A program made the position numbers and the translations under genes. Positions 21,375-40,816 of a stretch of 64,000 nucleotides of DNA are shown here, in pieces; within the stretch, counting starts at the first letter, position 1; each line of letters starts with the position of its first letter. Below the pieces are notes generated by a model. That model did no database searches. It worked only from the letters and a program-made list of their open reading frames with translations, and had not been told where the DNA came from. Origin of the DNA: Escherichia coli (lineage in GTDB: Bacteria > Pseudomonadota > Gammaproteobacteria > Enterobacterales > Enterobacteriaceae); the NCBI RefSeq assembly GCF_044324785.1, contig NZ_CP172127.1. One strand, 5' to 3'.

Positions 21375-21941
21375 ATGGCAAGTCAGGCTGAGGTCGCAGC
21401 ACATTTACTGCTATCTGATCGTCGTCTGCGCGATCTTGCAAAACTTCCGGGAGCCCCAGTCCCCCAAGGACGTGGCGATTGGGAACTTGACGCATGGCGC
21501 CATTTTTATATTCGTTATCTCCGGAGCAATAGACGCGACACAACTAGTAATGACGAACCGGAAGCTGGGGACAATTCTCCCGAAAAAAATCGCGAGCAGT
21601 GGTTGAAAAATGAGGAACGGCAGGAGCGAATCCTGATGGCTCGCGTGAAACGCCGCATTCTTGCTAAACGCTACGCGCCAATTGAATTAATCAGCGTATC
21701 TGTATCTCGCGTCGCAGTTGAATTACGTACCCGTGTCGAATCGTGGCCACCACGGTTAAAAAAGGTGTGGCCGGAAATGCCGCAGGAGGCGAGCAGTGTA
21801 TTACGAGAGGAGCTGGCAATAGCCCTGAATGAACTGGCAGACATACGAATCGACTTCAGCGATTACGATGTCAGCGATATCGAACGCGATCTCGACAGGG
21901 TTGAATCCCTTGCGCGTGACGATACCGATGACGGGGGTTGA
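21375..21941 (+). CDS. terminase small subunit
   Basis: position immediately upstream of and overlapping gpA-like large terminase; acidic C-terminus. Confidence 0.55.
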   Translation: MASQAEVAAHLLLSDRRLRDLAKLPGAPVPQGRGDWELDAWRHFYIRYLRSNRRDTTSNDEPEAGDNSPEKNREQWLKNEERQERILMARVKRRILAKRYAPIELISVSVSRVAVELRTRVESWPPRLKKVWPEMPQEASSVLREELAIALNELADIRIDFSDYDVSDIERDLDRVESLARDDTDDGG

Positions 21942-23790
21942 GTGGGCTGATAAACATTTTTATCTTCCCGAAGGCTCAAGCCATATTGCTGGCCACTGGA
22001 CGACTCAGCCGGTCCAGGTAGTGATGTTAAATATGATGACTAACGACGCGATAAAAATCGTGTCTGTTCGCAAATCAGCTCGTCTCGGTTATACAAAAAT
22101 ACTCGTCGCGGCGCTGCTCTATTTCGCTGAGCACAAAAAACGTAGTGCCGTGGTCTATCAGCCTATCGATGACGAATCGGATGGATTTGTCGCCGACGAG
22201 GTTGACCCCGCTATCGCCGAAATGCCGGTGATTCAGAAAATTTTCCCAGACTGGGATAAAAGCAACGAGCGTAACAATCTCCAGCGCAAAGAGATGAGCG
22301 GCGCAATTATTGATTTTCGCGGCGCGAGTACGCCGGGGAATTTTCGTCGACTGACGAAACAGGTTGTCGAAGGTGACGAGGTCGACGGCTGGCCGCTGGA
22401 GGTCGCTAAAAAAGGTAAAGGCGAAGGCTCGCCAATTGAGCTGGCGCTCGTTCGAATTAAGGGCGCAGCATACCCGAAAGCGATTTTTGGTTCGACGCCG
22501 ACCGTTACTGGCAAAAGCCATATAGAAATGTTGGAAGACGCGGCTGATCTGACGTTTCGTTTTTACCTGAAGTGTCCGCATTGTGGCGAGGAGCAGGTCC
22601 TGGTATTTGGTTTCGACGGTATCGAATACGGTCTCAAGTGGGATGACAGCCTGCAGACCAACGAGTCGAAATCGTCGTCCGCGTATTACCAGTGCTGCCA
22701 CTGCCCGGAGCATTTTTACTATCGCGATCTCGAAAAAATGGAGCTCGGGGGGCGCTGGATAGCCGAGGACTGCACCTGGACCCGAGACGGAATCCATTTT
22801 TTTGATCATGACAGTGGCGTCGTTCGCGCGCCGAAACACGCGGCGATCGTGATAAACGCCCTGTATTCACTAAACCTTGATGGATGGGGCGAGATTGTCA
22901 GCGAGTGGCTGAAAGCGAAGGGCGACCCACTCAAAGAAAAAACGTTTCATAACACGACGCTCGGCGAGCTTTGGAGCGACGTGGCCAGCGAGCAGCTGGA
23001 GCACGATATTCTGGTTAATCGCCGGGAAAAATACGCCAGCCAGGTTCCTGACGGTGTTGTTTATATAACCGGCGGCATCGACTCTCAGACGTCCGGGCGC
23101 TACGAGTGTTACGTGTGGGGCTGGGGAGCTGAGGAAGAGTGCTGGCTGATTGATAAAACAATCGTCCTCGGTCGCTACGACGAAGAGGACACGCTGCAGC
23201 GTGTCGACGGAGTGATTCGCAAACAATACCGGCGCAGCGACGGGACCACAATCGGCGTCAGCCGCTGGGCGTGGGATACCGGCGGTATAGATGCGCAGGT
23301 TGTTTATAACCGCTCGCTGAAACTCGGTCCGCTGTGGGTCATTCCAATTAAAGGCGCAAGCTCATACGGCCAGCCAGTCGTAAATATGCCGCGTACACGT
23401 AACGCGAATAAAGTTTATTTGTCGTTAATCGGTACTGACACAGCAAAAGATTTGCTCGCGATGCGCCTGCCACTGGAACCAGACCCAAAATCAGCGACAC
23501 CGGGTGCAATTCATTTTCCAAACGACGACGAAAAATTCGGCACAACAGAGGCAAAACAGCTCGTCTCTGAAGTTCTGATCCCGAAACTCATTAACGGTCG
23601 CGTCGTTTACCGCTGGGACAACCAGGGGCGGCGAAATGAGGCGCTCGACTGCTGGGTATACGGGCTGGCAGCGCTGCGTATCAGTAAAATTCGTTTCCAG
23701 CTCAATCTCGAGACGCTCGCTGAGCAACGGAAAAAATCACAAAACAAACTGTCTCTCGAGGAGATGGCGAGAATGCTCGGAGGGAGCTAA
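21829..23790 (+). CDS. terminase large subunit (lambda gpA family)
   Basis: VEWADKHFYLPEGS, VRKSARLGYTKIL, CPHCGEEQ, ITGGIDSQ, WGWGAEEECWLID, VIPIKGAS, RRNEALDC all parallel lambda A; start may be internal Met near 21928. Confidence 0.9.
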   Translation: MNWQTYESTSAITMSAISNAISTGLNPLRVTIPMTGVEWADKHFYLPEGSSHIAGHWTTQPVQVVMLNMMTNDAIKIVSVRKSARLGYTKILVAALLYFAEHKKRSAVVYQPIDDESDGFVADEVDPAIAEMPVIQKIFPDWDKSNERNNLQRKEMSGAIIDFRGASTPGNFRRLTKQVVEGDEVDGWPLEVAKKGKGEGSPIELALVRIKGAAYPKAIFGSTPTVTGKSHIEMLEDAADLTFRFYLKCPHCGEEQVLVFGFDGIEYGLKWDDSLQTNESKSSSAYYQCCHCPEHFYYRDLEKMELGGRWIAEDCTWTRDGIHFFDHDSGVVRAPKHAAIVINALYSLNLDGWGEIVSEWLKAKGDPLKEKTFHNTTLGELWSDVASEQLEHDILVNRREKYASQVPDGVVYITGGIDSQTSGRYECYVWGWGAEEECWLIDKTIVLGRYDEEDTLQRVDGVIRKQYRRSDGTTIGVSRWAWDTGGIDAQVVYNRSLKLGPLWVIPIKGASSYGQPVVNMPRTRNANKVYLSLIGTDTAKDLLAMRLPLEPDPKSATPGAIHFPNDDEKFGTTEAKQLVSEVLIPKLINGRVVYRWDNQGRRNEALDCWVYGLAALRISKIRFQLNLETLAEQRKKSQNKLSLEEMARMLGGS

Positions 23791-24023
23791 TGACCGCGCG
23801 CGAGGTTTTAACAGAACGGCTGCTGGAAGCGGAAATCGCTCTGCACAAATTATTAACGGGTAAATCGACCGTGTCGCTGTCTCACGGCGATTCAGCGGGA
23901 AATAACCGGAGCTATCAGTACTCCCAGGCGAGTATTGAACAGCTCCGAACGTACATTATCGAGCTGAAATCACAGCTCGGTCTGAGTACGGGACGCCGCC
24001 GTCCCGTGGGAGTTCGATTATGA
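23790..24023 (+). CDS. head-tail joining protein (lambda gpW-like)
   Basis: size and LHKLLTGK...YI.ELK.Q.G pattern as lambda W; follows terminase. Confidence 0.65.
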   Translation: MTAREVLTERLLEAEIALHKLLTGKSTVSLSHGDSAGNNRSYQYSQASIEQLRTYIIELKSQLGLSTGRRRPVGVRL

Positions 24024-25594
24024 CTGCTCCACAGCAGCTGCTCGGGCCTGACGGTAAAACGCCACTACGCCGTTTTGCGGGGTATAACGGCGGCGGTCCC
24101 GGTTTCGGTGGCCAGCTGATTGACTGGAATGCGCCACAGCAAAGCGCCGATGCGGCACTGCTGCCTAATTTTTATCGCGGTAACGCGCGAGCAGACGATC
24201 TCGTTCGCAATAACGGTGTCGCGTCGAACGCCGTGCAGCTGCACCAGGATCATATTGTCGGCAATCTGTTTAAATTGAGTTATCGCCCTAACTGGCGTTA
24301 CCTAGGGATATCTCGCGAGGACGCCAGGGCGCTGGCGCGTGACGTTGAGGTCGCGTGGACTGAATACGCTGAGGACCCTCACTGCACGATTGATATCGAG
24401 CGGAAACGGACGTTCACAATGATGATCCGCGAGGGTGTGGCCACTCACGCGTTTAACGGTGAAACCTGCGTACAACCGGTCTGGGAAAGCAGTACCGGTA
24501 GCGTTTTTCGGACGCGATTCAAAATGGTTTCGCCGAAACGGATTCGAAATCCGGGTTACGCAGCTGACACCCGATTTCGCCGCGCCGGTGTTGATATCGA
24601 TAAAAATGGAGCCGCAGTGGGCTACTGGATAGCCGAGGACACCTATCCACTCGGTGGAATCGGCAAGTGCCGGCGTATACCAGCGCAGCTCAGCAGCGGC
24701 AGACACGCATTCATTCACATATTCGAGCCGCTCGAGGACGGACAGACCCGCGGAGATAACATTTTCTACAGCGTCATGGAGCGCCTGAAAATGCTCGACA
24801 CACTGCAGCAAACACAGCTGCAGAGCGCGATTGTTAAGGCCATGTACGCCGCGACAATCGAATCAGAGCTCGATAGTCAGCAAGCGTTTGAATATATCGC
24901 CGGCGCGGGTACTGATATCGACTCGAACCCACTGAATTCGTTTATTCAGAGTTACGTGACGTACTACAACGGCGCAAATATCAAGCTCGGTGGTGTGAAA
25001 GTTCCTCATCTGCATCCCGGCGACAAACTCAGTTTACAGACCGCTCAGAATGCTGATGCTGGTTTTAGTTCACTGGAAAAATCACTCCTGCGTTACGTTG
25101 CAGCTGGCGTTGGCGCGTCATACGAAGAACTTAGCCGGGACTACAGCCAGGTCAGTTACTCCAGCGCCCGGGCCAGTGCTAACGTCAGCTGGCGATTTTT
25201 CATGGGGCGTCGACGTTTTATCGCCGCGCGACAGGCTTCGCTGATGTTCTGCTGCTGGTTTGAGGAGGCGCTGGCGCGCGGGATTATCACTCTGCCCCGC
25301 TCCGCGGTTCGGTCGTTTTACGAGGCGCGGAACTCCTGGACGAATGCCCTCTGGATCGGCGCTGGACGTATGGCCATCGATGGGCTGAAGGAGGTTCAGG
25401 AGAGCGCCATGAGAATCACGACCGGCCTCAGCACGTATCAGAACGAACTGGCGCTGCAGGGACAGGATTACGAGGAGGTTATGGAGCAACAGGAATACGA
25501 AATTCAGCGCCGGCGTGAAATGGGGCTGAGCGAACCGTCATGGTCTGTATCTCACTCCTCAAATACCAACGATAACGGCTGGGGAGGTAACTGA
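24020..25594 (+). CDS. portal protein (lambda gpB family)
   Basis: 524 aa, gene order and similarity to lambda B. Confidence 0.85.
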   Translation: MTAPQQLLGPDGKTPLRRFAGYNGGGPGFGGQLIDWNAPQQSADAALLPNFYRGNARADDLVRNNGVASNAVQLHQDHIVGNLFKLSYRPNWRYLGISREDARALARDVEVAWTEYAEDPHCTIDIERKRTFTMMIREGVATHAFNGETCVQPVWESSTGSVFRTRFKMVSPKRIRNPGYAADTRFRRAGVDIDKNGAAVGYWIAEDTYPLGGIGKCRRIPAQLSSGRHAFIHIFEPLEDGQTRGDNIFYSVMERLKMLDTLQQTQLQSAIVKAMYAATIESELDSQQAFEYIAGAGTDIDSNPLNSFIQSYVTYYNGANIKLGGVKVPHLHPGDKLSLQTAQNADAGFSSLEKSLLRYVAAGVGASYEELSRDYSQVSYSSARASANVSWRFFMGRRRFIAARQASLMFCCWFEEALARGIITLPRSAVRSFYEARNSWTNALWIGAGRMAIDGLKEVQESAMRITTGLSTYQNELALQGQDYEEVMEQQEYEIQRRREMGLSEPSWSVSHSSNTNDNGWGGN

Positions 25595-26901
25595 TGCCGT
25601 GGAACAATTTTCCGCACCTCGCCGCCAGGGCGTTCAATCAACCGCTTTTGCTGGAGCCCGCCTACGCGCGGGTGTTTTTTTCAGCGCTGAGCGACCGGTT
25701 CGGTACCGGGCGACTGATTGATACAGCGTCCGGAGAGGTAATGAACAGCGACGAAATGAACGCGCTCGCGATGGGGTGGGACAGCAGCGAGCGAACACGC
25801 CAGAAATCGTATCGCGTGGAGCGTGGTATAGCCGTTCTGCCTGTTACCGGGACGCTGGTTCATAAATTGGGTTATATCAATCCGGTCAGCGGGATGAGCG
25901 GTTACGACGGAATCGCAAAACGTCTGCAGCAGGCGATTTCTGATCCCGATGTTAAGGGGGTCTTGCTGGATATTGACTCCCCTGGCGGTGAGGTCGCCGG
26001 CGCGTTTGATACCGCTGATCTAATCGCCCGGGCGCGAGAGCAAAAACCGGTGTGGGCGCTGGCCAGCGATACGGCCTGCAGCGCCGCCTATTTGCTGGCG
26101 TCAGCGTGCTCGCGCAGGCTGATAACGCAGACCGGCACGGTTGGTTCAATCGGTGTCCTGATGGCTCACCGCTGCGTCGAAAAAGCGCTGGAGATTGCTG
26201 GCGTTGACGTGACGCTGATTTACGCCGGTGCACGCAAGGTCGACGGAAATCCTTACTCACAGCTGCCCGACGACGTTCGCGACGAATTCCAGCTGAGTAT
26301 TAACAGCACGCGCGAGCAGTTCGCGCAAAAAGTCTCGGATTATACCGGGCTGAAAAAATCCAGGGTGCTGGCCACTGAGGCCGCAGTATTTATCGGCGCG
26401 GACGCGATTAAATCTGGTCTCGCTGATCAACTCGTTAATTACGCGGACGCTATTGCAGTGATGGCCGACGCACTGAAACCAAAAATGGAGCGATTTATGC
26501 CAGGTACAGAAACCACGGCGGAGACCACGACCACAGAACAAACCGCGGCCACGACTACGGTCGCGCAGATTGAGTTCAACGAGAAACAGATTCGCGCTGA
26601 CGCTGTGTCGAGCGAACTGGCGCGCGTGATGGCCATCATCAATTGTCCCGAGGCCGTCGGGCGCGAGGCGCAGGCAAAAGCGCTCGCCGGCGTCCCCGGG
26701 ATGACCGTCGAGCAGGCGCAGCTGGTCCTCGCGGCAGCACCGCAAACGGCGCAGGCGCGGACAGAAACGGCGCTCGATACACTAATGAGCACTGAATCAC
26801 CGGCGACTATTCAGGATGCCGGCAGCATTACGGCAACAGGAACAACCGCAAACGTCTCGATGCTTGTCGCGGCAGGGCGTTCAATTTTAGGGGATGAATG
26901 A
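25594..26901 (+). CDS. head maturation protease / scaffold (lambda gpC-like, S49 ClpP-like)
   Basis: S49 peptidase core plus Ala/Thr-rich scaffold-like C-terminus. Confidence 0.8.
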   Translation: MPWNNFPHLAARAFNQPLLLEPAYARVFFSALSDRFGTGRLIDTASGEVMNSDEMNALAMGWDSSERTRQKSYRVERGIAVLPVTGTLVHKLGYINPVSGMSGYDGIAKRLQQAISDPDVKGVLLDIDSPGGEVAGAFDTADLIARAREQKPVWALASDTACSAAYLLASACSRRLITQTGTVGSIGVLMAHRCVEKALEIAGVDVTLIYAGARKVDGNPYSQLPDDVRDEFQLSINSTREQFAQKVSDYTGLKKSRVLATEAAVFIGADAIKSGLADQLVNYADAIAVMADALKPKMERFMPGTETTAETTTTEQTAATTTVAQIEFNEKQIRADAVSSELARVMAIINCPEAVGREAQAKALAGVPGMTVEQAQLVLAAAPQTAQARTETALDTLMSTESPATIQDAGSITATGTTANVSMLVAAGRSILGDE

Positions 26902-27230
26902 TGACCACAGAAACGTATAGCCCGGATGATTTTATTCTGGGACCTGATCTCGTTGTGACGACCGTCGGTCATTTTCAGGGTGGGATCAACGTACCCCGGC
27001 TGACACCGATTATGCTAGACGCTACCGCCGGCACGTTTAAAGTCTGGGACGGTTCAGTCGGTAAGGCCATTGGCCTCACAGCCACCGCAGTTAATACGGG
27101 TTCCAGTTCTGCAGACTGCTCGTACTACAAATCAGGCTCGTTCCGTTACACGGCGATCAATTGGGGTACGGTTACCGACGTAGCTAAACGCAAATCAGCG
27201 TTTGCTGGTACGCCAGTCAGCGTCGGCTGA
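26898..27230 (+). CDS. head decoration protein (lambda gpD-like)
   Basis: PLMLD...W.G...YKSG.FRY...W......KR.AFAGT pattern as lambda D. Confidence 0.75.
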   Translation: MMTTETYSPDDFILGPDLVVTTVGHFQGGINVPRLTPIMLDATAGTFKVWDGSVGKAIGLTATAVNTGSSSADCSYYKSGSFRYTAINWGTVTDVAKRKSAFAGTPVSVG

Positions 27231-27251
27231 TGGCAAAAAAACTCAAAACAA

Positions 27252-27277
27252 GCCGCCTCCGGGCGGTTTTTTTATAC
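27252..27277 (+). terminator. intrinsic terminator / attenuator before major capsid gene
   Basis: ccgcc-tccg-ggcgg hairpin plus ttttttt. Confidence 0.6.
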
Positions 27278-27288
27278 AGGATATCTAA

Positions 27289-28323
27289 ATGAGCGATTCG
27301 TTTACTACGTCAGAACTCATTACCGCGACACAGCAGGTATTTAAGTTCAATCCGTTATTTTTAAGACTTTTTTTTCGTGAGACATACACGTTTACGAGCG
27401 AAGAGGTTTTTCTGGATAAAATCCCGGGAAAAGTGAACATGGCCGTGTACTGCGCGCCGATGATCACCGGCAAAGTTGACCGCACTCGCGGCTATTCAAC
27501 GAACCATTTCAAACCGGGTTACACGAAGCCGAAACACACGATCAATCCGAATATGAGCATCAAGCGCGCCGCAGGTGAGCAGATTGGCCAGCCGGAAACG
27601 CCGGTCGAACGTCGTGCAAAAATTATCATGCAGAACCTGCTCGACGAGGAGCTCAGCATCAGTCAGCTCGAAGAGTTCCAGGCAGTGCAGGCGGTTCTGT
27701 ACGGTAAATACACCGTCTCTGGCAGCAATATCGAGACCTATGAGATCGATATGAGCCGCAGCGCGACGAATAACGTCACTCAGTCCGGTTCGACAGCTTG
27801 GTCGACTCAGGACGCAGAAACGTATGACCCGAGCGACGATATCGAATCCTATGCGGACCTCGCCTCCGGTGCTGTTAACGTGATAATTATGGACGGTAAA
27901 GCCTGGAAGCAGTTGAAGCGCTTTAAAAAATTCTGGACGACACTGGATACGCGCCGTGGCTCAAACAGCCAGCTCGAAGTCGCGCTGAAAAACCTGGGCG
28001 ATGTCGTTAGCTTTAAGGGCTATTACGGCGACACGGCGCTGTTCGTTTACAAGGGGCAATATATTGACCCTGTAACAGGCACTGAAACGCGTTATATGCC
28101 GGATAACACGATGATCCTGGGCAACACAAAAAATCGCGGACTCCGCACCTATGGCGCGATCCAGGACGAGGACGCGCTGAAAGAGGGTATCTGCGAGGCC
28201 ACGCGTTATCCAAAAGTCTGGACTACGACCGGCGATCCGGCAGTGACGCAGACAATGACCCAATCCGCGCCAGCGATGGTCCTCACCGACGCCGACGCGT
28301 TTGTCGTCGTAAAAATCGCGTAA
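27289..28323 (+). CDS. major capsid protein (lambda gpE family)
   Basis: FKFNPLFLRLFFRE, IPGKVNMA, RRAKIIMQNLLDEEL, TRRGSNS, NTKNRGLRTYG parallel lambda E. Confidence 0.9.
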   Translation: MSDSFTTSELITATQQVFKFNPLFLRLFFRETYTFTSEEVFLDKIPGKVNMAVYCAPMITGKVDRTRGYSTNHFKPGYTKPKHTINPNMSIKRAAGEQIGQPETPVERRAKIIMQNLLDEELSISQLEEFQAVQAVLYGKYTVSGSNIETYEIDMSRSATNNVTQSGSTAWSTQDAETYDPSDDIESYADLASGAVNVIIMDGKAWKQLKRFKKFWTTLDTRRGSNSQLEVALKNLGDVVSFKGYYGDTALFVYKGQYIDPVTGTETRYMPDNTMILGNTKNRGLRTYGAIQDEDALKEGICEATRYPKVWTTTGDPAVTQTMTQSAPAMVLTDADAFVVVKIA

Positions 28324-28346
28324 GAGCCGAAAGGCTCTTTTTTTAG
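28324..28346 (+). terminator. intrinsic terminator after major capsid gene
   Basis: agagcc-gaaa-ggctct hairpin plus ttttttt. Confidence 0.7.
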
Positions 28347-28355: not shown

Positions 28356-28769
28356 ATGAGCACAAAAACAGAATTGCTGGCGCGCATTGACGATTTGAGC
28401 GCCCAGCTCGGTCGCGAATTGCCGCGCAGCGGGACTATTGCTGAACTGGAATCAATCGTCGCTGGCGCTGAGTCAGAGCTCGATATTCTGAACGAGCAAT
28501 CCGGTGACGCGAGTGATGCCAACATTAATGCGAACGCATCAGATGAAACTGATGATGACAGCGCAGAACAACCGTCAATCGCGAGCACGACGTCACAACC
28601 AGAACTGTCTCCCGCTACGCGCCGCGTTAAGCTGCGTAACACGCTGGATGTATATCACTACGTGAACGGGCGTCGCGTTCGCGAGATTGTTGCCGCTGGC
28701 CGTGAAATTGTTGTTGATTCACCAGAGGTTGCAGACCTCATCGCAGCTGATCACGTTTACGCTCTATGA
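28356..28769 (+). CDS. DNA packaging protein (lambda gpFI-like)
   Basis: N-terminus MSTKTELLARIDDLSAQLGRELPRSGTIAELESIVA resembles lambda FI. Confidence 0.55.
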   Translation: MSTKTELLARIDDLSAQLGRELPRSGTIAELESIVAGAESELDILNEQSGDASDANINANASDETDDDSAEQPSIASTTSQPELSPATRRVKLRNTLDVYHYVNGRRVREIVAAGREIVVDSPEVADLIAADHVYAL

Positions 28770-29146
28770 GCTACTACGATGACCTCCGGGCCGGCGATGA
28801 GGAGATGATTCTGGAGTGGGGACGGCCCGTTAAATTACGCGGTAAAACCGCCCCCATTATCGCTATTTTCAACGAGCCTTACGCGCGCGTTGACGTTCCT
28901 CACGCTGGTTTTATTACCGGTACAGTAACGAGCCTGACGGCGCTCTCAGACGACGTCGCTGGCATTGTTGCGCGTGACGTCGTCCAGGTTCCAAAGCAGC
29001 GCAGTATCGCTGATGACGGCTCAGTTACCTGGTCTTGTTGGACCGATTACGTTGTTAAAGAGCCTCAACCTGATGGCACAGGGCTCACGAATATTTTTTT
29101 AGAGCCTCACACGTCCAGCGAAAACAGCGAGTATTCAAAATACTAA
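28766..29146 (+). CDS. head completion / head-tail connector protein (FII-position)
   Basis: position after FI-like gene. Confidence 0.4.
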   Translation: MSYYDDLRAGDEEMILEWGRPVKLRGKTAPIIAIFNEPYARVDVPHAGFITGTVTSLTALSDDVAGIVARDVVQVPKQRSIADDGSVTWSCWTDYVVKEPQPDGTGLTNIFLEPHTSSENSEYSKY

Positions 29147-29167
29147 GTGGGACCGCGGTCCCACTTA
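29144..29167. other. 24-bp perfect palindrome (taagtgggaccgcggtcccactta) at head/tail module junction
   Basis: perfect inverted repeat overlapping the stop codon; no T-run. Confidence 0.6.
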
Positions 29168-29858: not shown

Positions 29859-30391
29859 GCGGACTGGATGCATTTGACGAATATCTTGATCGCGTTAAAG
29901 GCGCGGTTTTACAAATACCGTTCATCAAAACATTCGGAATTTATCCAGAAATTCCGGCAGGATTTGAAACGCCAGCTCTGTTCCTGGAAATCAGCAACTG
30001 GTCACAGAGTGACGAATCGGTTCCAGGCTCAATTCAGTCAGTCGAGCTGTCGTGTAATTTGTATTTGCTGCGTGAGTTTGCTGCGGATCGGTACGGACTG
30101 AAATCGCAGAATGCAGCGCTCTATATGACGAGCTGGATTAATGGGCGAATGTTTGGTGCCGGAACTAAACCAGCAAAATTCAGCGACGCGGAACCGTGTG
30201 ACTGGATTAAAAACGGGCAGTCAGTCGGCTCGCATTCAGTTCAGTGCGTGTCGTTCACGCAGGTTGTCGGCGTTGGTCCCGATATTTTCGATTATCCCTC
30301 ACAGGGAACACTGAAAAATATATACGTCGGAATAGCGCCAGATATCGGCGCAGAACACGAGAGCGACTACTATGGCCCAATCGGACGATGA
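29855..30391 (+). CDS. hypothetical tail-associated protein
   Basis: coupled to neighbours in tail operon. Confidence 0.4.
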   Translation: MSGLDAFDEYLDRVKGAVLQIPFIKTFGIYPEIPAGFETPALFLEISNWSQSDESVPGSIQSVELSCNLYLLREFAADRYGLKSQNAALYMTSWINGRMFGAGTKPAKFSDAEPCDWIKNGQSVGSHSVQCVSFTQVVGVGPDIFDYPSQGTLKNIYVGIAPDIGAEHESDYYGPIGR

Positions 30392-31277: not shown

Positions 31278-31279
31278 AT

Positions 31280-32538: not shown

Positions 32539-32540
32539 CC

Positions 32541-33167
32541 ATGACAAGTCAAAGCGTACTGCCTCCGAACGCAATAACCCCCGAGAGAGCGCTGGAATCT
32601 GTTTTATCTCACGTTGGCGATCTGCCTGGCGATATTCGAATTATTAAAAATCCCGATTTGTGTCCTGCAAATCTGTTGCCGTGGCTGGCGTGGGAATACG
32701 CCGTCACCTACTGGAACCCCGACTGGAGCGAGCAGCAAAAACGCGAAATTATTAAAGCAGCTGCGTGGCAGAACAAGCACCGCGGAACGCGTGGAGCTGT
32801 TGAACGAGCGTTATTAACAGTTGGATTTGAGAGCAAAATGAGAGAGTGGTTTGAAGCCACGCCGAGGGACGACCCGTATACATTCGCAATTAAAATATAT
32901 CTGCTAAAAAGTATAGGGTTAGATTTAGAGCTATTGAATACATTTATAGCGCAAATATTTGATGCAAAAAATTGTCGTTCATTATTAAAGGAAATAAATT
33001 TCGAAACGGGTGTCGATGGTGAGTTTTTTATAGCCGGTACACCTTACGCGAAAATAGACGTAAACGTCCCAGCAGACGGCGACGGCGGTGTAAAAATTAA
33101 CGGCGGGCTATATATATCGGGCTCACCAATTGTTAGTTTAAATGTGGAGATAGGGCCAAATGGCTGA
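32541..33167 (+). CDS. tail protein I (baseplate)
   Basis: size and order as P2 I. Confidence 0.7.
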   Translation: MTSQSVLPPNAITPERALESVLSHVGDLPGDIRIIKNPDLCPANLLPWLAWEYAVTYWNPDWSEQQKREIIKAAAWQNKHRGTRGAVERALLTVGFESKMREWFEATPRDDPYTFAIKIYLLKSIGLDLELLNTFIAQIFDAKNCRSLLKEINFETGVDGEFFIAGTPYAKIDVNVPADGDGGVKINGGLYISGSPIVSLNVEIGPNG

Positions 33168-34284
33168 AAATAAAATTTACGCAGTACTGACAGACCGTGG
33201 CGCACAACTCGAGGCCGCTGCCCTGGCGTCAGGCGTTCCAGTGGTGCTGAACAAATTTGTTATCGGTGACGCGAACGGAAACGACGATGTAACACCAGAC
33301 CCTGCACGAACAGCATTAATTCACGAGACGTATCGCGGTGATATTAAATCGTCAGAAAATAGCGGTAATCAGGTTATTTTTACGCTATACGTACCACCGG
33401 AAACCGGCGGCTATACTATCCGCGAAGTGGGAATACTGACAGATAAAGGTGAACTGTACTCTGTAGCGCGTTCGCCGGATATTTTAAAACCCACGGACAG
33501 TAACGGCGCGCTGATTTCAATCACGTATAAATACACTCTCGCGGTGTCCAGCACCTCTACAGTTAATGTTGTAGTATATGACAACTACGTAACTCCCGAA
33601 GCAGCTGACAAAAAATATTTGCAGATAAGTAAAAACTTATCTGAAATTTCCGCAAATGGTGAAACTGCTCAGCAGGCTGCGCGGAAAAATATTGGTATAG
33701 ATGGGGATGTTGCATATAGAGATAAGAGTAATACATTTACAACTCAAAACACTTTCAAAGACGATGTTTTTTTTGAAGATATTTTGATTTCTAAAAAACA
33801 AATAAATATAAATAAACCAGATACCAACTTGACATTATTTTCGCTTGCGGGCTGGTCAGATGTGAGCGGTGATTATTTAGAAGTGTCGACGCGGGGGGGA
33901 AATAATCAAAACGTTTTTTATAGATTACGCGGAATTCACTATGACGGCCTGGTGTTACTGTGCGGCGGGCAGACGTATAAATATTGGAATGAGGGAAATC
34001 TTAAACCGGTTAAAACGATTAACGGGAAGTCCCCAGACGCTAACGGGAACGTCGCAATAACAGTAAGTAGCTCAGGGATACAGAACGTCCAGCTTGGCGC
34101 AGAGGTTGCTCACACACCGGCGAGTAATGAGGTTACGTGGGACTTTAAATGTCCGACCGGCTGTGTTCTTACTGGGATATATGTTCAGGAAACCGGCGAC
34201 AGCTCAGCTGATAATATCGGCGGTGTTTATTATAAACCGATCCAAAAATACATTAATAATGTATGGACTACGATTTCCGGATGA
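33160..34284 (+). CDS. tail fiber protein
   Basis: conserved N-terminal fiber domain, AT-rich variable C-terminal half. Confidence 0.7.
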   Translation: MAENKIYAVLTDRGAQLEAAALASGVPVVLNKFVIGDANGNDDVTPDPARTALIHETYRGDIKSSENSGNQVIFTLYVPPETGGYTIREVGILTDKGELYSVARSPDILKPTDSNGALISITYKYTLAVSSTSTVNVVVYDNYVTPEAADKKYLQISKNLSEISANGETAQQAARKNIGIDGDVAYRDKSNTFTTQNTFKDDVFFEDILISKKQININKPDTNLTLFSLAGWSDVSGDYLEVSTRGGNNQNVFYRLRGIHYDGLVLLCGGQTYKYWNEGNLKPVKTINGKSPDANGNVAITVSSSGIQNVQLGAEVAHTPASNEVTWDFKCPTGCVLTGIYVQETGDSSADNIGGVYYKPIQKYINNVWTTISG

Positions 34285-34287
34285 GTT

Positions 34288-34866
34288 ATGCAAAATTTAA
34301 AATCATTTAAGCTTGTAAAACCTAAAACGAAATTACTTAAACTTAGCGAGTCTGACGGACAAAATGTTTTGTATCTTCAGTCCGAAGACGGCCTGGATTG
34401 GTATGAATGCCAGTCACTGTATCGCGATGACACAGTAAAAATAATGTACGACAAAGAAAACATTATTCGATCAGTTGTTGATCGCCCGGTCCCGGAGCGA
34501 GGAAATACCTATTCTGTGAGCATGTTTTTCCCGATTGATATGAGTGTTACGGAGGTTGAGTTGAGCACATATCCTTCTGAGCTAACTCTCGACGGATCGT
34601 GGAAATTTGTTGACGGTGATGTATATCAAGATGAGCTCATTGTAAATGAGCGTATTTACAAAGAAAACTCCAAAAAAATTAATGAATTAGTCCGAGAGGC
34701 TCAGTCAGCAATTCTAAATTTACAAACGGCCATAGAGATTGATATTTCATCAGATGGTGATGAGGAAAAATTAATAGAATGGCGACGGTACCTGTGCGCG
34801 CTGAATAAAATAACAGCCACGGATCTGAGTCAGTCCCCACTTAACACGCCTTTACGACCAGCATAA
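34288..34866 (+). CDS. tail fiber assembly chaperone
   Basis: immediately downstream of fiber gene. Confidence 0.5.
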   Translation: MQNLKSFKLVKPKTKLLKLSESDGQNVLYLQSEDGLDWYECQSLYRDDTVKIMYDKENIIRSVVDRPVPERGNTYSVSMFFPIDMSVTEVELSTYPSELTLDGSWKFVDGDVYQDELIVNERIYKENSKKINELVREAQSAILNLQTAIEIDISSDGDEEKLIEWRRYLCALNKITATDLSQSPLNTPLRPA

Positions 34867-34878
34867 ATAGGGTACCTA

Positions 34879-36384
34879 ATGAGCACTAATTTTTTACACG
34901 GTATTCGCACGCTCGAATACGACGACGGCACAAAAGAGATTAGCACGGTAGATATTTCAGTTATCGGGATTGTTGGTACTGCACCGGATTCCGCGCAATC
35001 AACCAGTTCCGAGTTAATAACAGGGAGTGCTATTTTAAAAAACCGCCTGAAATTCACGGCGACGGGACAGGGGGTGAACGGCAATTCATGGAGCGTAGAG
35101 ATTCTCGAAACCGATCCGGACGGCTGCACGGCACTGTGGAGTGATATGCCCGACGGGAGTCGACGTTTATCAATATCAGTCGCACCGGCATCCGGCTCGC
35201 ACGGATACACCCCAGCAGAAATCGTGCAGGCAGTCACAATAGCAAACCCGCCTCCGGACCAATTATTTTTAACAATTACGGCAGTAGATGTCGAGGAGGA
35301 CGCGGGAAATGTGACTGCCTCACCGTTGCAATATTTAAGCGGCGGCAGTGATGAGGCGTTCCCAATTAATACCCCCGTACTTGTTGCCGGGAGTCCAAAA
35401 AAATCCGCTTTACTGGGTGAGCGCGGCACGTTGCCGAAAGATATTGCCGATATTTTCAATCAGGACAACGCCTTGCTTGTTGTTGTACGAGTAAAAGATG
35501 ACAAAGACACAACAAAACAACAGCAAAATATTATCGACGGTGTCAAGCAGCTGGAAAAATCGAAACAGTTAACCGAAGTCACACCGCGTATTATTATTGC
35601 ACCAGATTTTAGCGCAATTGATGCGATAGCCGCTCAGCTTGAGGTGGCCGCAAATAAACTCCGGGGGGTGTGTTATATAGACTCTCCGCGCGCTGCTACC
35701 CCTGCAGACGTTGTGAATCGCCGGCAAAAACTCGGCGGACGTGCTGAGTTGTTGCGTCCCCGTGTTTATTCAACTAGCGACGTCGGGGGGCAATCAAGAC
35801 CGTATTCTGCCATCGCTGCTGGTTTACGAGCCAGAATTGATAATGAAAAAGGGTTTTGGTGGAGTAAGTCGAATCAAAATATTTATGGAATAACAGGGCT
35901 TGAGCAGGTTGATGATTTCATTATTGGCGAGACAAACTGCACAGCGAACCTGCTGAACGCTAGTCAGGTCAGCACCATCATTCGCTATGACGGATTCCGA
36001 CATTGGGGTAACTATCTGTGCAGCCTGGATCCGCAATGGTCGTTTGAATGCGTTCGTCGAACAGCTGACGTAATTGAGGATTCTATAGCCCGGGCAATGA
36101 TGACCGATTTTATTGATCGCCCGATAGACCTGCATCTCGGAACAGACGTTGTCGAGTCGATAAACGCGTATCTGCATAAATTAGAGGAGCAGGGTGCGAT
36201 TAACGGAGGGCGTGCGTGGTTAGACGGTGAGCTGAATACAAAAGAAAGTCTGGCCGCTGGCAATCTTTATATTAATGTTGATTTTGGTCCGAAATCTCCG
36301 GCACAAACAATTACGTTAATGTACCGCATTAATAATGACTATACAGTTGAAGCACTAGCCTCACTTTTTAAAGAAACAGCCTGA
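34879..36384 (+). CDS. contractile tail sheath protein
   Basis: N-terminus MSTNFLHGIRTLEYDDGTKEISTVD resembles P2 FI / Mu L. Confidence 0.85.
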   Translation: MSTNFLHGIRTLEYDDGTKEISTVDISVIGIVGTAPDSAQSTSSELITGSAILKNRLKFTATGQGVNGNSWSVEILETDPDGCTALWSDMPDGSRRLSISVAPASGSHGYTPAEIVQAVTIANPPPDQLFLTITAVDVEEDAGNVTASPLQYLSGGSDEAFPINTPVLVAGSPKKSALLGERGTLPKDIADIFNQDNALLVVVRVKDDKDTTKQQQNIIDGVKQLEKSKQLTEVTPRIIIAPDFSAIDAIAAQLEVAANKLRGVCYIDSPRAATPADVVNRRQKLGGRAELLRPRVYSTSDVGGQSRPYSAIAAGLRARIDNEKGFWWSKSNQNIYGITGLEQVDDFIIGETNCTANLLNASQVSTIIRYDGFRHWGNYLCSLDPQWSFECVRRTADVIEDSIARAMMTDFIDRPIDLHLGTDVVESINAYLHKLEEQGAINGGRAWLDGELNTKESLAAGNLYINVDFGPKSPAQTITLMYRINNDYTVEALASLFKETA

Positions 36385-36401
36385 TAATTCGGAGAGTAAA
36401 T

Positions 36402-36914
36402 ATGTCAGACAGCAACGCTTACCGCGCGTTTGCGCTATTCGTGCAGGGCGAACGGGTTTTAAATTGTACTGAATATACTCCTGTCGATATGAAAATAATC
36501 GAGGACGAGTTTAAAACAGGCGCGATGGATACAGCTATCACATTAGATGGCGGTATGGAGAAAATGTCAGCCAGTTTTAAAGTTTCGGGTTCTGATTCTG
36601 GTGTTATGAGCTATTTCGGGTTAATACCGGGAGTCAAGACGCGGTTTGAAATTCGTAGTGCGTACACAGACTCCTATGGAATAAATTTTGAGCGTATTGA
36701 TACCTACGAGGGACTTATTACGGCAATCACTGATGACGCTCAGGGGACTGATTCAAAATCGTCAGTGGGGCAATCAGTAACGATTGCGCCGAGCTATTAT
36801 AAACGAGTTCAAAATGGACGAATTATTTACGAAATTCATCCTGCAAAAATGAAACGCGTTATCAACGGTGTTGATGTTCTTGCGGGCGTCGCTCGAATCC
36901 TTCATGTATATTAA
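36402..36914 (+). CDS. tail tube protein
   Basis: 170 aa following sheath. Confidence 0.8.
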   Translation: MSDSNAYRAFALFVQGERVLNCTEYTPVDMKIIEDEFKTGAMDTAITLDGGMEKMSASFKVSGSDSGVMSYFGLIPGVKTRFEIRSAYTDSYGINFERIDTYEGLITAITDDAQGTDSKSSVGQSVTIAPSYYKRVQNGRIIYEIHPAKMKRVINGVDVLAGVARILHVY

Positions 36915-36926
36915 AAGGTAAGTAAA

Positions 36927-37208
36927 ATGGAATCCTTATTAGACAGTATGACTATTACGCTCTCTCGACCGTTTATTATTAAGGGCGAGAGCTGCGATAC
37001 AATTACTATTCGCGAACCCAAATTACGCGACCGCATTATGTTCAGTAACGATAAAAGCAGTCTTGAAGAGCGGACAGCGACAATGCTGGCGCGCCTGGCA
37101 AATCTGGAAAGAGAGGATTTATATGCGCTCCCCGCGTGCGATTACGATCAACTGGAGGCCGCGTTTAACGAACTGGTAAAGCACCCGAAAGACCGACATC
37201 AGATATAG
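36927..37208 (+). CDS. tail assembly chaperone (P2 gpE-like)
   Basis: 93 aa between tube and tape measure; -1 frame open for about 55 codons from 37169 to 37335. Confidence 0.6.
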   Translation: MESLLDSMTITLSRPFIIKGESCDTITIREPKLRDRIMFSNDKSSLEERTATMLARLANLEREDLYALPACDYDQLEAAFNELVKHPKDRHQI

Positions 37209-37316
37209 TTATTCTGATTCCGTTTATTGCGAAAAAACTTGCCATCCCGCCTGATACGCAAATGGACCTGCCGTATCGGGTTTTTAATTTCTATGTAGAC
37301 GAGGTCATGAAAACCG

Positions 37317-38957
37317 ATGGCTATTTCTCAAAACTTTAAAACGCAGGTTGTATTCGGGGGGCGAATAGACCCGTCGTTTCGGCGCGGTACAACAGAACTC
37401 AACGACGCCATTCGGCAGACGTCGTCTACTGTCGGAAAATTAACGAAAAGCCAGGATAAATTAAAAGACAAAATCGCAGCAATGAAACTGGCAGGTAAAG
37501 ATGTCTCTGATTTATCTGCTCAATATCAAAAGCTGGACCGTCGGATAAAGGCGACAACGCAGGACCAGGAGGCGCTGAATACCCAGCTTGCTAAAAAACA
37601 GCGGCTGGAGAAGTGGACGGGGCGCGCAAAAGGTGCTGCAAAATGGGGCGGACGAGCCGCCGCAGGTGCGGTGAGGGCCACGGGACGGGGTATCAAATGG
37701 GGGACGCTGGGGGCCGTGGGTCTGCTCGGCGGCGCGGCTGCTGGCGCGCTGGCAATGAATGCAGAGACGTCAGAAAAACTCGGTCTGGCGAAGTCCTACG
37801 GTGTTGGCATCGAAAAATACGCTGCGTGGGAAAATATTGGTAAAGCTGCGGGCCTGAACGGCGAAAATGTTGGTGACCTGTCAGAAGAACTTACAAATAA
37901 AATCGGCGAAATCGGAAACGAAAAAAACCTGAACCCCATGTTGTTTCAAATTGGCTTGACAAAAAAACGGATGGCTAAATGGGATCGAGAAAAACAGTTC
38001 AATGAAGTTATGCGGCGTATCTCTGAAATGAAGGATGATCAACAGGCGGCGAGTCTGGCTGATCAGCTAATGGGGGGAGAGGCTAATAAAATAATGACCT
38101 ATATGCGGGCGACTGGTAAAAGCTGGGAGCAGACTATGTCGGACGCTCAAAAATCAAACCTGCTAACGAAAGAAGGGGCTGAGGGTGCAGCGCGCGCGCA
38201 CGTATCCGTCACGAATCTGTGGGGGGCAATCACATCGGGGCTGGCAGATACTCTCGGCAAAATCGGAGGGGAACTCGCGCCGACGTTTGACGCTATGCGA
38301 GACGGGCTGGCATCCTGGTTTAAAGAGAATCAAGGGGGGGTTGTTGATAGTATTAAAGAATGGGTTAAGCCAGAAAATATGAAAAAACTTTGGGAGGGGA
38401 TAGTCAGTTTTGGCGAGGCGTGCGTTAAATTCGGAAAAATAATTTGGGCAGTCGTAAAAAAACTGGAGTGGTTAATCCCGGACGAGAAAACAGACGAGGA
38501 ACAGCGCGTATATAACGAAGAATATAATAAAGCGTATCAGGAATTCATGGATAGTGGTGGTAAATATTCACCGAACCCAGGACTGGCAGCAGATAATGTA
38601 GCAAAAGCAAAAGCCGACGAAGCCGTGGATAATATGCGACACCCTGAACGTCTTGCTCGTGCAAAATCACAGGCTGAATCAATGCTCTCGTTTGCTAACC
38701 CGTTTACTGGATTAATAAATAAAGACTCAACGCCTGAATCACAAAACTCAGCAACGTTGAATATTGACGCGCTGAGACAGGCAGTCGCAACTCCAGCGCC
38801 AGAGCAAAACAATAAAATTGAAATCAATATTATCGGAGCAGCAGATCCACAATCAACACAGCAGGCTGCCGCATCGGGTGTGCTCGACGGGCTGAGACAG
38901 GTTGCGAGTTCGTACAATCGTGGTGCAATGTTTGATAAACCAGCGGCGGCGGGGTGA
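37317..38957 (+). CDS. tail tape measure protein
   Basis: 546 aa, coiled-coil and Gly/Ala-rich segments. Confidence 0.7.
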   Translation: MAISQNFKTQVVFGGRIDPSFRRGTTELNDAIRQTSSTVGKLTKSQDKLKDKIAAMKLAGKDVSDLSAQYQKLDRRIKATTQDQEALNTQLAKKQRLEKWTGRAKGAAKWGGRAAAGAVRATGRGIKWGTLGAVGLLGGAAAGALAMNAETSEKLGLAKSYGVGIEKYAAWENIGKAAGLNGENVGDLSEELTNKIGEIGNEKNLNPMLFQIGLTKKRMAKWDREKQFNEVMRRISEMKDDQQAASLADQLMGGEANKIMTYMRATGKSWEQTMSDAQKSNLLTKEGAEGAARAHVSVTNLWGAITSGLADTLGKIGGELAPTFDAMRDGLASWFKENQGGVVDSIKEWVKPENMKKLWEGIVSFGEACVKFGKIIWAVVKKLEWLIPDEKTDEEQRVYNEEYNKAYQEFMDSGGKYSPNPGLAADNVAKAKADEAVDNMRHPERLARAKSQAESMLSFANPFTGLINKDSTPESQNSATLNIDALRQAVATPAPEQNNKIEINIIGAADPQSTQQAAASGVLDGLRQVASSYNRGAMFDKPAAAG

Positions 38958-39382
38958 CAATGAGTGATGCAATAAACGGTGCTGAGGATATCATGCTCGG
39001 TTTGGGTGATTTCATTTTTGCTATATCAACAGTAGCGTACAACAAACTGCAACGTAGTGACGCCTGGCGCTGGGCTCAGCAAACACGATTCGGGAAAAAC
39101 GACGCATTGCAGATAACCGGACGACCGAACCCCACAATCACGATCGATGGGAAAATAAACGCGTTATTCCTTGATGGGTGCGGCATTGGCTTGTTAACAG
39201 ATTTGCGGGCACTGGGGAACTCGGGAGAACCCCAGCAACTGGTGCTGGGGACCGGGGAGGTGAAGGGGTACTGGGTTATCAGGGAGTTAACAGAAACGCA
39301 AAACAGTTTTCTGAAAGGAGGGACCCCAAAATCGCAGGACTTTTCACTCACGCTCGAATATTATGGAGCTTCGCTAGATTAA
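38954..39382 (+). CDS. tail protein U
   Basis: pattern matches P2 gpU family. Confidence 0.7.
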   Translation: MTMSDAINGAEDIMLGLGDFIFAISTVAYNKLQRSDAWRWAQQTRFGKNDALQITGRPNPTITIDGKINALFLDGCGIGLLTDLRALGNSGEPQQLVLGTGEVKGYWVIRELTETQNSFLKGGTPKSQDFSLTLEYYGASLD

Positions 39383-39544
39383 TACAAAATCAAGCGCTAC
39401 CAGAGCACTTAACAAGTATAAAAATAATAAAAAAAACTACGAGCATAAATGTAAAACAACCTGATGGTATTTTTTTTTGACGCCGAAATACTAATACCTC
39501 TCCGACTACTAAAATTAATTCTCATTATGAAATCCTTTTAATTA

Positions 39545-39769
39545 ATGGGGCCCCAAATGATTACATACACTACACGGGACGGTGACCGTCTCGATCAGAT
39601 CTGCCTTGCTGTCTACGGGAGAACAGCAAAAACGACAGAAACCGTGTTATATCAGGTTTTAAATTACGGCGTAACGGATATGTGTGCCGTGTTTCGTGCA
39701 GGAGAAAAAATTGTTTTACCAGAAATCGACCCCGAACCGGCTAAAAAAGAAACGCAATTATGGGATTGA
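39545..39769 (+). CDS. tail protein X (LysM-like)
   Basis: DRLDQICLAVYGRT ... ETVL pattern as P2 gpX. Confidence 0.7.
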   Translation: MGPQMITYTTRDGDRLDQICLAVYGRTAKTTETVLYQVLNYGVTDMCAVFRAGEKIVLPEIDPEPAKKETQLWD

Positions 39770-39772
39770 TGA

Positions 39773-40816
39773 ATGAGTGATTACGTAAATACTGGCGTGG
39801 AAGCATGGAAGCCCAATTTTTATATATCTGCTGATAATGAAAACATCACGGATAAAATAAGAAAAGGTTTGATCAATATCACGCTCACAGATTATGGTGG
39901 TTCGAGTAAACAGACAGACGAATTACGCGTAGCAATCGTTTCTGAAACTCTGAAAATTCCGGCCCGCGGAGTAAAAATCAGTATTGGGCTCGGTTTCGGT
40001 AATCAGATAATTGATAAGGGTGTATACATCGTTGATGGTGCGAGCAGTGGCGGTGAACCCCGGGTAGTTGATTTCACAGCAAAAGCAGCTCCGATGAACG
40101 CATCAAAAGGCTCTCCGACAGTTCAGAGCAAAAAAACTCGCTCCTGGAGCGACGTCACTGTCAGCAATATCGTTGCAACAATAGCGAGCGATAACGGGCT
40201 AAAACCTCGCGTATCAAAGCGGTTTGCAGACAACATTATCACGCAGCTCGATCAAGTCGGCGAGTCAGATATGCACCTGATGTCGCGGCTCGCAACGAGA
40301 TTCGATGCGGTGAGTAAACCCGCGGGCGGGTACTGGATATTCCTGCCGCGCGGCGCGGGCGAATCTGTTAGCGGAGCACCGCTTCAGCACTACACGCTCA
40401 CGCGTCGTGATAACTCAAGCTGGGGTTATTCGAGAAATGGACAAAACGGTGATAGTGGCGGAGGTGGCGAAAATGCGGAGCCAACGTATTTGATCAAATA
40501 TCACGATACAGCAACGGGGCAGATCAAAGAATTGCGTACGGGCAGTGGCGGCGATCCTGTAATCGAGTGGCCGGCAGTGGAGCCGTCGCTTGATGCAGCG
40601 AAAGAAGCTGCGCCAGGACTCAAGGGCGGTGCAGCTAAAAAAGAGTTCTCCATGACTTACACGACGCCCGCGACGCTCGATTTAGTATCGCTGACTGCAG
40701 AATGCAAAGTCACAACACAAGGATTCGGGACAGAGGAGGACCGAGACTGGACAATCAATACGTTGACGCTGACGCTGGCTGAAAACGGATTCTCTGCGCG
40801 ACTGTCGCTGGAGTAA
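39773..40816 (+). CDS. tail protein D (late control D family)
   Basis: 347 aa, last gene of P2-like tail order. Confidence 0.8.
   Translation: MSDYVNTGVEAWKPNFYISADNENITDKIRKGLINITLTDYGGSSKQTDELRVAIVSETLKIPARGVKISIGLGFGNQIIDKGVYIVDGASSGGEPRVVDFTAKAAPMNASKGSPTVQSKKTRSWSDVTVSNIVATIASDNGLKPRVSKRFADNIITQLDQVGESDMHLMSRLATRFDAVSKPAGGYWIFLPRGAGESVSGAPLQHYTLTRRDNSSWGYSRNGQNGDSGGGGENAEPTYLIKYHDTATGQIKELRTGSGGDPVIEWPAVEPSLDAAKEAAPGLKGGAAKKEFSMTYTTPATLDLVSLTAECKVTTQGFGTEEDRDWTINTLTLTLAENGFSARLSLE

Follow-up and report, generated by a model that had tools for sequence, protein, structure and literature searches.

A lambdoid Escherichia coli prophage with a lambda-type packaging and head module followed by a P2/R-pyocin-type contractile tail module

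The exchange of head and tail modules is a textbook mode of tailed-phage evolution. The WO phages of Wolbachia have been called lambda/P2 chimeras in a paper that also cites the Xylella prophages xfp1 and xfp2 as examples (PMC3235987); in the Xylella fastidiosa prophages, genes for packaging and heads resemble those of lambda, and the gpV, W, J, I, U, X and D proteins are P2-like (PMC2605562). A locus of the same design is described here from Escherichia coli (contig NZ_CP172127.1 of assembly GCF_044324785.1): positions 21375-40816 of an analysed stretch of 64,000 nucleotides (the window), for which an initial annotation had proposed lambda-type packaging and head genes joined to a contractile tail in P2 gene order. 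The region very probably represents the complete late operon of a single temperate prophage of lambdoid type encoding a myovirus, reaching from a candidate cos site (approximately 21266) to the end of the baseplate hub gene (40816). The hybrid design as such is already known and neither rare nor new, because it is present in about 440 E. coli genomes, in GenBank records and in the published WO and Xylella chimeras. The locus carries little weight as a discovery and is useful as a clean annotated example, both of the proteins at the junction of a lambda-type head with a contractile tail (gpW, FII, a gpZ-family member and a terminator of pyocin-collar type) and of one tail found behind two head types.

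The window proteins were compared with the reference proteomes of lambda (J02459) and P2 (AF063097) by direct BLASTP and phmmer searches and, in addition, with Pfam and PHROG profiles. This protein-level comparison supported a lambda-type head and a P2-type tail, and all genes named in the initial annotation were found in their places on the plus strand. The head genes tracked lambda Nu1-A-W-B-C-D-E-FI with 35-64% identity from A to FI (Nu1 by profile); the complete order Nu1-A-W-B-C-D-E-FI-FII, followed by Z, was the same as in lambda. The packaging and head module comprises the following genes:

21375-21941, plus strand: small terminase of the Nu1 family (phrog_57, 1.7e-38, the PHROG common to lambda Nu1)
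21928-23790, plus strand: large terminase of gpA type (43% identity to lambda A over 624 amino acids)
23790-24023, plus strand: head-tail joining (adaptor) protein of gpW type (Pfam gpW, 6e-16; 35% to lambda W)
24020-25594, plus strand: portal protein of the lambda gpB family (Pfam Phage_portal_2, 1e-90; 64% to lambda B)
25594-26901, plus strand: S49 head protease/scaffold of gpC type (Pfam Peptidase_S49, 6e-37; 55% to lambda C)
26898-27230, plus strand: head decoration protein of gpD type (Pfam HDPD, 9e-8; 38% to lambda D)
27289-28323, plus strand: major capsid protein of gpE type (Pfam Phage_cap_E, 4e-60; 57% to lambda E, 340 amino acids)
28356-28769, plus strand: DNA-packaging protein of FI type (Pfam Packaging_FI, 3e-10; 35% to lambda FI)
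28766-29146, plus strand: head-closure (Hc1) protein of FII type (Pfam Phage_attach, 6e-11; phrog_82, 1e-23, the PHROG that also holds lambda FII)

For the large terminase, whose start codon (ATG at 21928) was taken from the annotation of the related record ON470624, Pfam returned GpA_ATPase (approximately 1e-46 to 3e-46) and GpA_nuclease (1e-63). The Nu1-like protein gave a marginal BLASTP match to lambda Nu1 (E = 0.025) and no Pfam match, and the FII-like protein had no direct BLAST similarity to lambda FII, the resemblance being at profile level only. Terminator-like hairpins with T runs were seen inside the late operon on the plus strand directly after D (27250-27269) and directly after E (28322-28339).

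That the head could be a P2-type (gpN/gpO/gpQ) capsid misread as lambda-like, in what would then be an ordinary P2-like phage, deserves hardly any credence: lambda A, B, C, D and E matched in the window at 1e-15 to 0, whereas none of the P2 head genes Q, P, O, N, M and L had a tblastn match at E <= 1e-3 in the 64 kb, and the Pfam head families are the lambda-specific ones. The window therefore holds no P2 head gene, in agreement with the lambda-type head of the initial annotation; lambda tail genes (U, V, G, H, M, L, K, I, J) were likewise not detectable in the 64-kb window.

Upstream of Nu1, a candidate cos region was located on the plus strand (21266-21307). Its first 13 nucleotides, CGGGTCCTTTCCG (21266-21278), are identical to lambda 48472-48484 and thus form an exact copy of the cosQ core with its flanks; a cosN-like 12-mer, GGTCGGTAGACG (21296-21307), follows at the lambda spacing and in register. 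The exact lambda cosN 12-mer was not found in the window, and matches with two mismatches occurred at chance frequency. The cosN-like 12-mer is regarded as a candidate cohesive-end site, at which the cos ends would be placed. Just 3' of it, a motif GTATTTCCGG aligns with lambda GCGTTTCCG.

The tail genes follow FII after 31 bp. According to the initial annotation, V came directly after the head block and the tail list ended at D; two open reading frames (ORFs) between FII and V (29178-29858 and 29855-30391) and a second fibre gene behind D (40822-42648) had been overlooked. With these included, the tail side reads (tail proteins were concatenated for the PDB search):

29178-29858, plus strand: neck/tail-completion protein of the lambda gpZ family (Ne1), 226 amino acids (phrog_27, 2.6e-41, 'tail completion or Neck1')
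29855-30391, plus strand: tail terminator, homologue of the R2-pyocin collar PA0615, 178 amino acids (phrog_1072, a PHROG with no annotated function)
30372-31277, plus strand: baseplate spike of gpV type, 301 amino acids (Pfam Phage_base_V; 34% to the P2 V N-terminus; PDB 3qr8)
31280-31621, plus strand: baseplate wedge/sheath initiator of gpW/gp25 type (Pfam GPW_gp25; 37% to P2 W; PA0617, 3e-22)
31618-32538, plus strand: baseplate wedge of gpJ type (Pfam Baseplate_J; 41% to P2 J; PA0618, 1e-58)
32541-33167, plus strand: baseplate wedge of gpI type (Pfam Tail_P2_I, 3e-37; 34% to P2 I; PA0619)
33160-34284, plus strand: tail fibre with a P2 gpH-type N-terminus (Pfam Phage_tail_fib, tail-collar fibre; 33% to P2 H residues 28-141)
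34288-34866, plus strand: tail-fibre assembly chaperone of gpG/Tfa type (Pfam Caudo_TAP; 31% to P2 G; Mu protein U, 5yvq)
34879-36384, plus strand: tail sheath, 501 amino acids (Pfam sheath domains; 35% to P2 FI at residues 159-496; PA0622, 2e-45)
36402-36914, plus strand: tail tube (Pfam Phage_tube, 8e-22; 30% to P2 FII; PA0623, 5e-14)
36927-37208, plus strand: tail assembly chaperone E (Pfam Phage_TAC_7), with a probable -1 extension E' (stop at 37337-37339)
37317-38957, plus strand: tape measure, 546 amino acids (assigned by its size and its position between E/E' and U)
38954-39382, plus strand: tail protein of gpU type (Pfam Phage_P2_GpU, 1e-32; 36% to P2 U; PA0626)
39545-39769, plus strand: LysM-like tail protein of gpX type, between U and D (Pfam Phage_tail_X; 39% to P2 X)
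39773-40816, plus strand: baseplate hub of gpD type (26% to P2 D over 370 amino acids, 9e-24; pyocin R2 chain 6u5h_C, 1e-20)
40822-42648, plus strand: second tail fibre with a lambda Stf (orf401)-type N-terminus (Pfam phage_tail_N, 5e-25; 34% to orf401 residues 1-129)

The tail order is thus collar-V-W-J-I-H-G-sheath-tube-E-T-U-X-D. The P2 order claimed previously holds as an approximation: X is placed between U and D, a collar of PA0615 type stands before V, and the locus has neither R nor S. In the sheath, residues 3-42 match the P2 FI N-terminus, and an insertion of approximately 115 amino acids follows these N-terminal 40 or so residues. The tape measure protein falls into phrog_3654 (6e-249; no annotated function) and had no Pfam match; the Pfam GPD match of the hub was weak. 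Between gpU and gpX there is an AT-rich gap (39383-39544, 160 bp) which, in the related SE11 prophage, is occupied by a minus-strand gene annotated as 'superinfection immunity protein'; the window has only a minus-strand ORF of 38 amino acids there (39409-39525).

Since the protein encoded at 29178-29858 shares phrog_27 with lambda gpZ (3e-69 for the latter), the lambda-like series extends from Nu1 to Z; a single-sequence search with this protein against PDB gave no match. The collar protein encoded by the next gene, taken as a single sequence, had 6u5f_A (PA0615) as its sole PDB match (E = 0.0036), whereas a profile of 40 homologues, which came from an exhaustive representative search (a word-indexed search gave 13 close relatives only), matched the PA0615 chain over its full length with E = 9e-33 at an identity of approximately 20%. 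An AlphaFold2 (AF2) model of the collar reached a predicted local distance difference test (pLDDT) score of 91.8; in the Foldseek ranking, the pyocin collar 6u5f_A came out best, followed by the Mu tail terminator, the monocin cap, lambda gpU and T4 gp15. When the collar profile was aligned by hhalign, nothing was obtained against P2 R and S, and the match to lambda gpU was weak (probability 8.6%), so that kinship to gpU is visible at fold level only. Because of the PA0615 profile match and the matches to tail-terminator folds, the protein is a tail terminator of the pyocin-collar lineage with a gpU-like fold. P2 R and S themselves had no BLAST match in the window, and they belong to other PHROGs (phrog_65 and phrog_26, respectively) than the two window proteins (phrog_27 and phrog_1072).

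A scan of IMG/VR with the collar alignment retrieved 80 loci, onto which all window proteins were mapped. A head of the lambda C/D/E type was present in 23 of them, and 51 had a fused ClpP-protease/capsid head as in Hafnia phage yong2; the other six showed no upstream sequence. Z adjoins the collar in 78 of the 80 loci, and the pair follows a head module in all 74 with visible upstream sequence; the order of the tail genes is permuted in many of the loci with a fused-type head. Most informative is locus L023: it has a fused-type head, its FII is only 34% identical to that of the window, and its tail proteins are close to those of the window (Z 66%, collar 63%, V 91%, J 88%, I 91%, H 90%, G 95% identity), with 85-95% identity across baseplate and fibre. 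The DNA homology begins at window position 29265, a point within the Z gene some 100 bp downstream of the palindrome described below, and continues to the end of the locus. At the sequence level, this is decisive for a real head/tail module swap between the window prophage and L023. As L023 shares the tail side behind a different head, the FII|Z junction behaves as a head/tail exchange boundary, although Z belongs to a lambda-type family. The hybrid plan of a lambda-type head with a contractile P2-type tail, as put forward in the initial annotation, is therefore supported by the homologies and gene order of the reference comparison, by the absence of alternative head and tail genes and by relatives with the same tail behind a different head.

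The junction is marked by a perfect 24-bp palindrome, TAAGTGGGACCGCGGTCCCACTTA (29144-29167), in the 31-bp gap between FII and Z. The initial annotation had taken it as the head/tail junction, which agrees with the exchange boundary at FII|Z and disagrees with the lambda-like series, as the latter runs one gene further. The palindrome is kept in close relatives, in three of which (L024, L025, L027) a compensatory double change is seen (GTGGGCCCGCGGGCCCAC); at the same position, L022 and L023 carry unrelated G+C-rich hairpins, that of L023 being followed by eight T and resembling an intrinsic terminator. In the window, a T-rich tail accompanies the palindrome on the minus strand only. In more distant relatives, FII and Z overlap and the hairpin is absent. 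A tentative and rather doubtful extension of these data would be that the FII-Z-collar trio forms a portable neck cassette, docking one pyocin-type tail on lambda C/D/E as well as on fused ClpP-capsid heads; the G+C-rich hairpin after FII, variable between lineages and kept in position, would then be a preferred exchange point or an expression boundary. The adjacency of Z and collar with either head type (78 of 80 loci), the L023 swap, and the compensatory change and the replacements of the hairpin would all fit.

The junction also bears on a different explanation, according to which two unrelated elements lie side by side, namely a head-only lambda-like remnant and an R-type tailocin used by the host, and no hybrid virion exists. 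The hairpin at 29144-29167 could indeed part two transcription units, and the tail proteins match R2-pyocin structures chain by chain; their gene order is also that of the headless R2-pyocin cluster PA0615-PA0628 (collar-V-W-J-I-H-chaperone-sheath-tube-E-T-U-X-D). However, the blocks lie on one strand with a gap of only 31 bp, no sign of a second element (integrase, att attachment site, regulator) was found between them, and they are bridged by a full neck set (W, FII, Z, terminator). Moreover, the head genes are all intact and of full length compared with their homologues, head and tail have been conserved together in viral contigs and in about 440 E. coli genomes, and Z and collar come after a head module in 74 of 74 loci with visible upstream sequence. 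Two adjacent elements are accordingly very improbable, and a single late operon is the reading followed below.

The co-conservation is seen in complete E. coli genomes, of which 440-441 of 5,426 contain the block (at least 80% of the region covered) at about 92-94% identity, annotated by the NCBI Prokaryotic Genome Annotation Pipeline (PGAP). In IMG/VR contigs, too, the whole block is kept as a unit, and it is carried by four GenBank records named 'Escherichia phage vB_EcoM-...', which look like prophage segments and not like packaged genomes. Among named phages, the nearest relatives of the sheath are Citrobacter phage Chris1, Hafnia phage yong2, the Vibrio phages Valp1, MAR, VP585 and VHML, and WO. 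The NC-SV prophage was considered as a published precedent and rejected, being an ordinary lambda-like siphovirus.

The surroundings of the block are those of a lambdoid prophage. From 21375 to 40816, the ORFs form an unbroken plus-strand series, tightly packed and with many overlaps of 1-4 bp. Upstream of the head block there are early genes (a CII-like protein/activator, an O-like initiator, a DnaB-type helicase, an anti-repressor) and genes of late control and lysis (a Q antiterminator, two holin genes, an endolysin); the lambdoid genome plan is thus present, with CII, O-type initiator, helicase, Q and lysis cassette followed by the candidate cos region and terminase. The right end of the prophage lies at approximately 43250; the sequence that follows is core chromosome of E. 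coli, with zinT, hprRS and dcm (98.7% identity). The window does not reach the left end and the integrase, and no transfer RNA genes were found within the 64 kb. The lysis region contains the following features:

15847-17175: IS3-family (IS2-like) insertion sequence (IS) element of 1.33 kb, with an HTH_Tnp_1 ORF and an rve ORF of 301 amino acids; it splits the Phage_holin_8 gene
17406-17678: intact three-transmembrane (3TM) holin gene
17678-18160: intact endolysin gene

Remnants of the Phage_holin_8 gene are left on both sides of the IS2-like element (15687-15860 and 17149-17406). Between the lysis genes and cos, about 2.6 kb (18087-20704) are extra in comparison with ON470624; they contain a KilA-N/ORF11CD3 gene (18731-19228) together with several short ORFs on the minus strand that match no family. 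The host flank (43254-64000) covers the zinT, msrPQ, hprRS, hchA, ompC, dcm and vsr region.

The split holin gene raises the question whether the module is real and this copy cryptic and non-releasing, the hybrid design being a genomic fossil in this host. Besides the IS2-like insertion at 15847-17175, the host flank does not exceed 98.7% identity to any complete E. coli genome of the RefSeq set (5,426 genomes) and may thus derive from Shigella or from another E. coli lineage not represented there. IS-mediated decay is a known feature of Shigella-type lineages, and the prophage left end with the integrase is not visible in the window. On the other hand, the structural ORFs from 21375 to 42648 are all open and of normal length, their proteins show no frameshifts against relatives that are 93-99% identical at the protein level, and the 3TM holin and the endolysin are intact. 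A cryptic copy is on balance unlikely, though it has to be taken more seriously than any of the other alternatives, and the operon of a myovirus-building prophage is retained as the preferred reading.

If so, virion assembly would proceed as follows. The Nu1/gpA terminase would recognise the lambda-like cos site, and DNA would be packed into a shell made from gpB portal, gpC protease/scaffold and gpE capsid, with gpD as stabiliser; gpW and the FII-type protein would close the portal. Tail assembly would be a separate process of P2/R-pyocin type: on a baseplate composed of the gpD hub, the gpV spike, the W/J/I wedges and the H-type fibre with its chaperone, tube and contractile sheath would polymerise to a length set by the tape measure with its E/E+E' chaperones, and the pyocin-collar-type terminator would cap them. 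The gpZ-family neck protein is encoded together with the tail genes, and the finished tail would dock on the FII ring. The joining of head and tail via FII and collar, and likewise the actual production of particles, are what we infer from gene content and order.

Several points weigh against this picture of a functional hybrid virion. The Z-like and FII-like proteins resemble lambda gpZ and lambda FII at profile level only, and the cosN-like 12-mer agrees with lambda at 6 of 12 positions. In gene C, the internal Met of lambda Nu3 aligns with Ile (26299, residue 236) and is thus not conserved, and neither ATG nor GTG with a Shine-Dalgarno motif was present at residues 200-280, though a start may lie elsewhere; scaffold production may therefore differ from the Nu3 route of lambda. 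Gene E lacks a canonical X_XXY_YYZ slippery heptamer. Release is possibly impaired in this copy, as one of its two holin genes carries the IS2-like element. The GenBank vB_EcoM records measure 19-27 kb and include the host gene yecA. Finally, no published micrograph was found for this E. coli prophage family, whose particles are predicted here from their genes.

As to gene E, the -1 frame behind gpE is open over 37169-37336 and overlaps the start of the tape measure gene. The E' peptide, which had no Pfam match, shows 61-70% conservation in relatives with only about 65-77% DNA identity to the window, and the octamer TGGTAAAG is invariant at the shift window, where the non-canonical heptamer G_GTA_AAG is found (37175-37181). 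Because of the conserved peptide and the invariant octamer, an E+E' product formed by -1 frameshifting on G_GTA_AAG is likely.

Variation within the family concerns the fibre genes and their neighbourhood. The C-terminal part of the H-type fibre differs among relatives; in comparison with ON470624, a divergent cassette (34031-35635) covers the fibre C-terminus, the chaperone and the N-terminal insertion domain of the sheath. Identity to vB_EcoM-705R4 (ON470624) drops to 71% in the sheath, compared with 93-99% for the neighbouring proteins. SE11 has no fibre-chaperone gene. The second fibre gene, directly after gpD, is missing from ON470624 and shorter in SE11; no Tfa-type chaperone adjoins it in the window, the next ORF (42629-43096) being a phrog_890 lipoprotein.

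Among the 5,426 complete E. coli genomes, 129 carry a spacer of type I-E clustered regularly interspaced short palindromic repeats (CRISPR) arrays that is 100% identical to the 32-mer at window positions 32508-32539 (J stop/I start); the repeat flanking this spacer in NZ_AP022173.1 is CGGTTTATCCCCGCTGGCGCGGGGAACAC. On the spacer-sense strand, the CAT at window positions 32540-32542 corresponds to a 5'-ATG protospacer-adjacent motif (PAM). The 129 matches at >=99% identity had been considered as near-identical prophage copies, which was rejected, since they are 36-bp CRISPR spacer matches. For the related record ON470624, 28 matching E. coli spacers have been reported (PMC12736100, 2025). The literature on vB_EcoM-705R4 yielded one paper, in which the phage appears as a CRISPR spacer target only, and no description of its morphology. 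The spacer matches fit a phage encountered by E. coli, and the family, apparently a frequent type I-E spacer target, is relevant to studies of CRISPR immunity in this species.

Compared with described systems, the locus is closest in gene content to vB_EcoM-705R4 (ON470624) and to the prophages of SE11 and E24377A (next to yodB/zinT), which have the same genes in the same order; the DNA of this family is about 92-94% identical over 84-94% of the region and most structural proteins are 93-99% identical. The SE11 prophage occupies the same chromosomal site as the window prophage. The window copy differs from this family by the IS2-like insertion in the holin gene and by the extra 2.6 kb (18087-20704).

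With lambda, the locus shares the order from Nu1 to Z, the A/W/B/C/D/E/FI proteins (35-64% identity), the identical cosQ 13-mer and the upstream CII, O and Q genes. It differs from lambda in lacking U, V, G/T, H, M, L, K, I and J, in a terminator of pyocin-collar type, in the Nu3 internal start, which is not conserved, and in FII and Z, which are beyond BLAST detection. With P2, it has in common the homologues of V, W, J, I, H, G, FI, FII, E, U, X and D (26-41% identity) in nearly the same order and a probable E/E+E' frameshift. In contrast to P2, capsid and terminase genes of P2 type as well as R and S are absent, and X, which P2 encodes at 6509-6712 between L and Y in the head/lysis operon, stands between U and D. 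P2 has R and S in front of V, and its tail genes are divided between separate V and F operons and broken up by orf30 and fun(Z); the window lacks these last two genes and has its tail genes in one continuous block. Further differences are the sheath insertion of about 115 amino acids, a V protein longer by 90 amino acids and a lambdoid (Q) instead of an Ogr-type regulation.

In the R2 pyocin of Pseudomonas aeruginosa (PA0615-PA0628; PDB 6u5b, 6u5f, 6u5h, 3j9q), solved chains match the collar, W, J, I, sheath, tube, U and D proteins; the pyocin is headless and has no portal, terminase or neck proteins, whereas the window tail comes directly after a full head module with FII and Z. The WO and Xylella chimeras are described as likewise combining head and packaging genes of lambda type with P2-type baseplate and tail genes; they belong to other hosts and are only distantly related in sequence, with WO sheaths 37-39% identical to the window sheath. 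Hafnia phage yong2 and similar IMG/VR contigs, finally, have the same Z-collar pair and homologous tail genes (sheath 46-47% identical), but they differ in their fused ClpP-protease/capsid head in place of C/D/E and in a permuted tail (V-sheath-tube-E-T-U-X-D-W-J-I-H).

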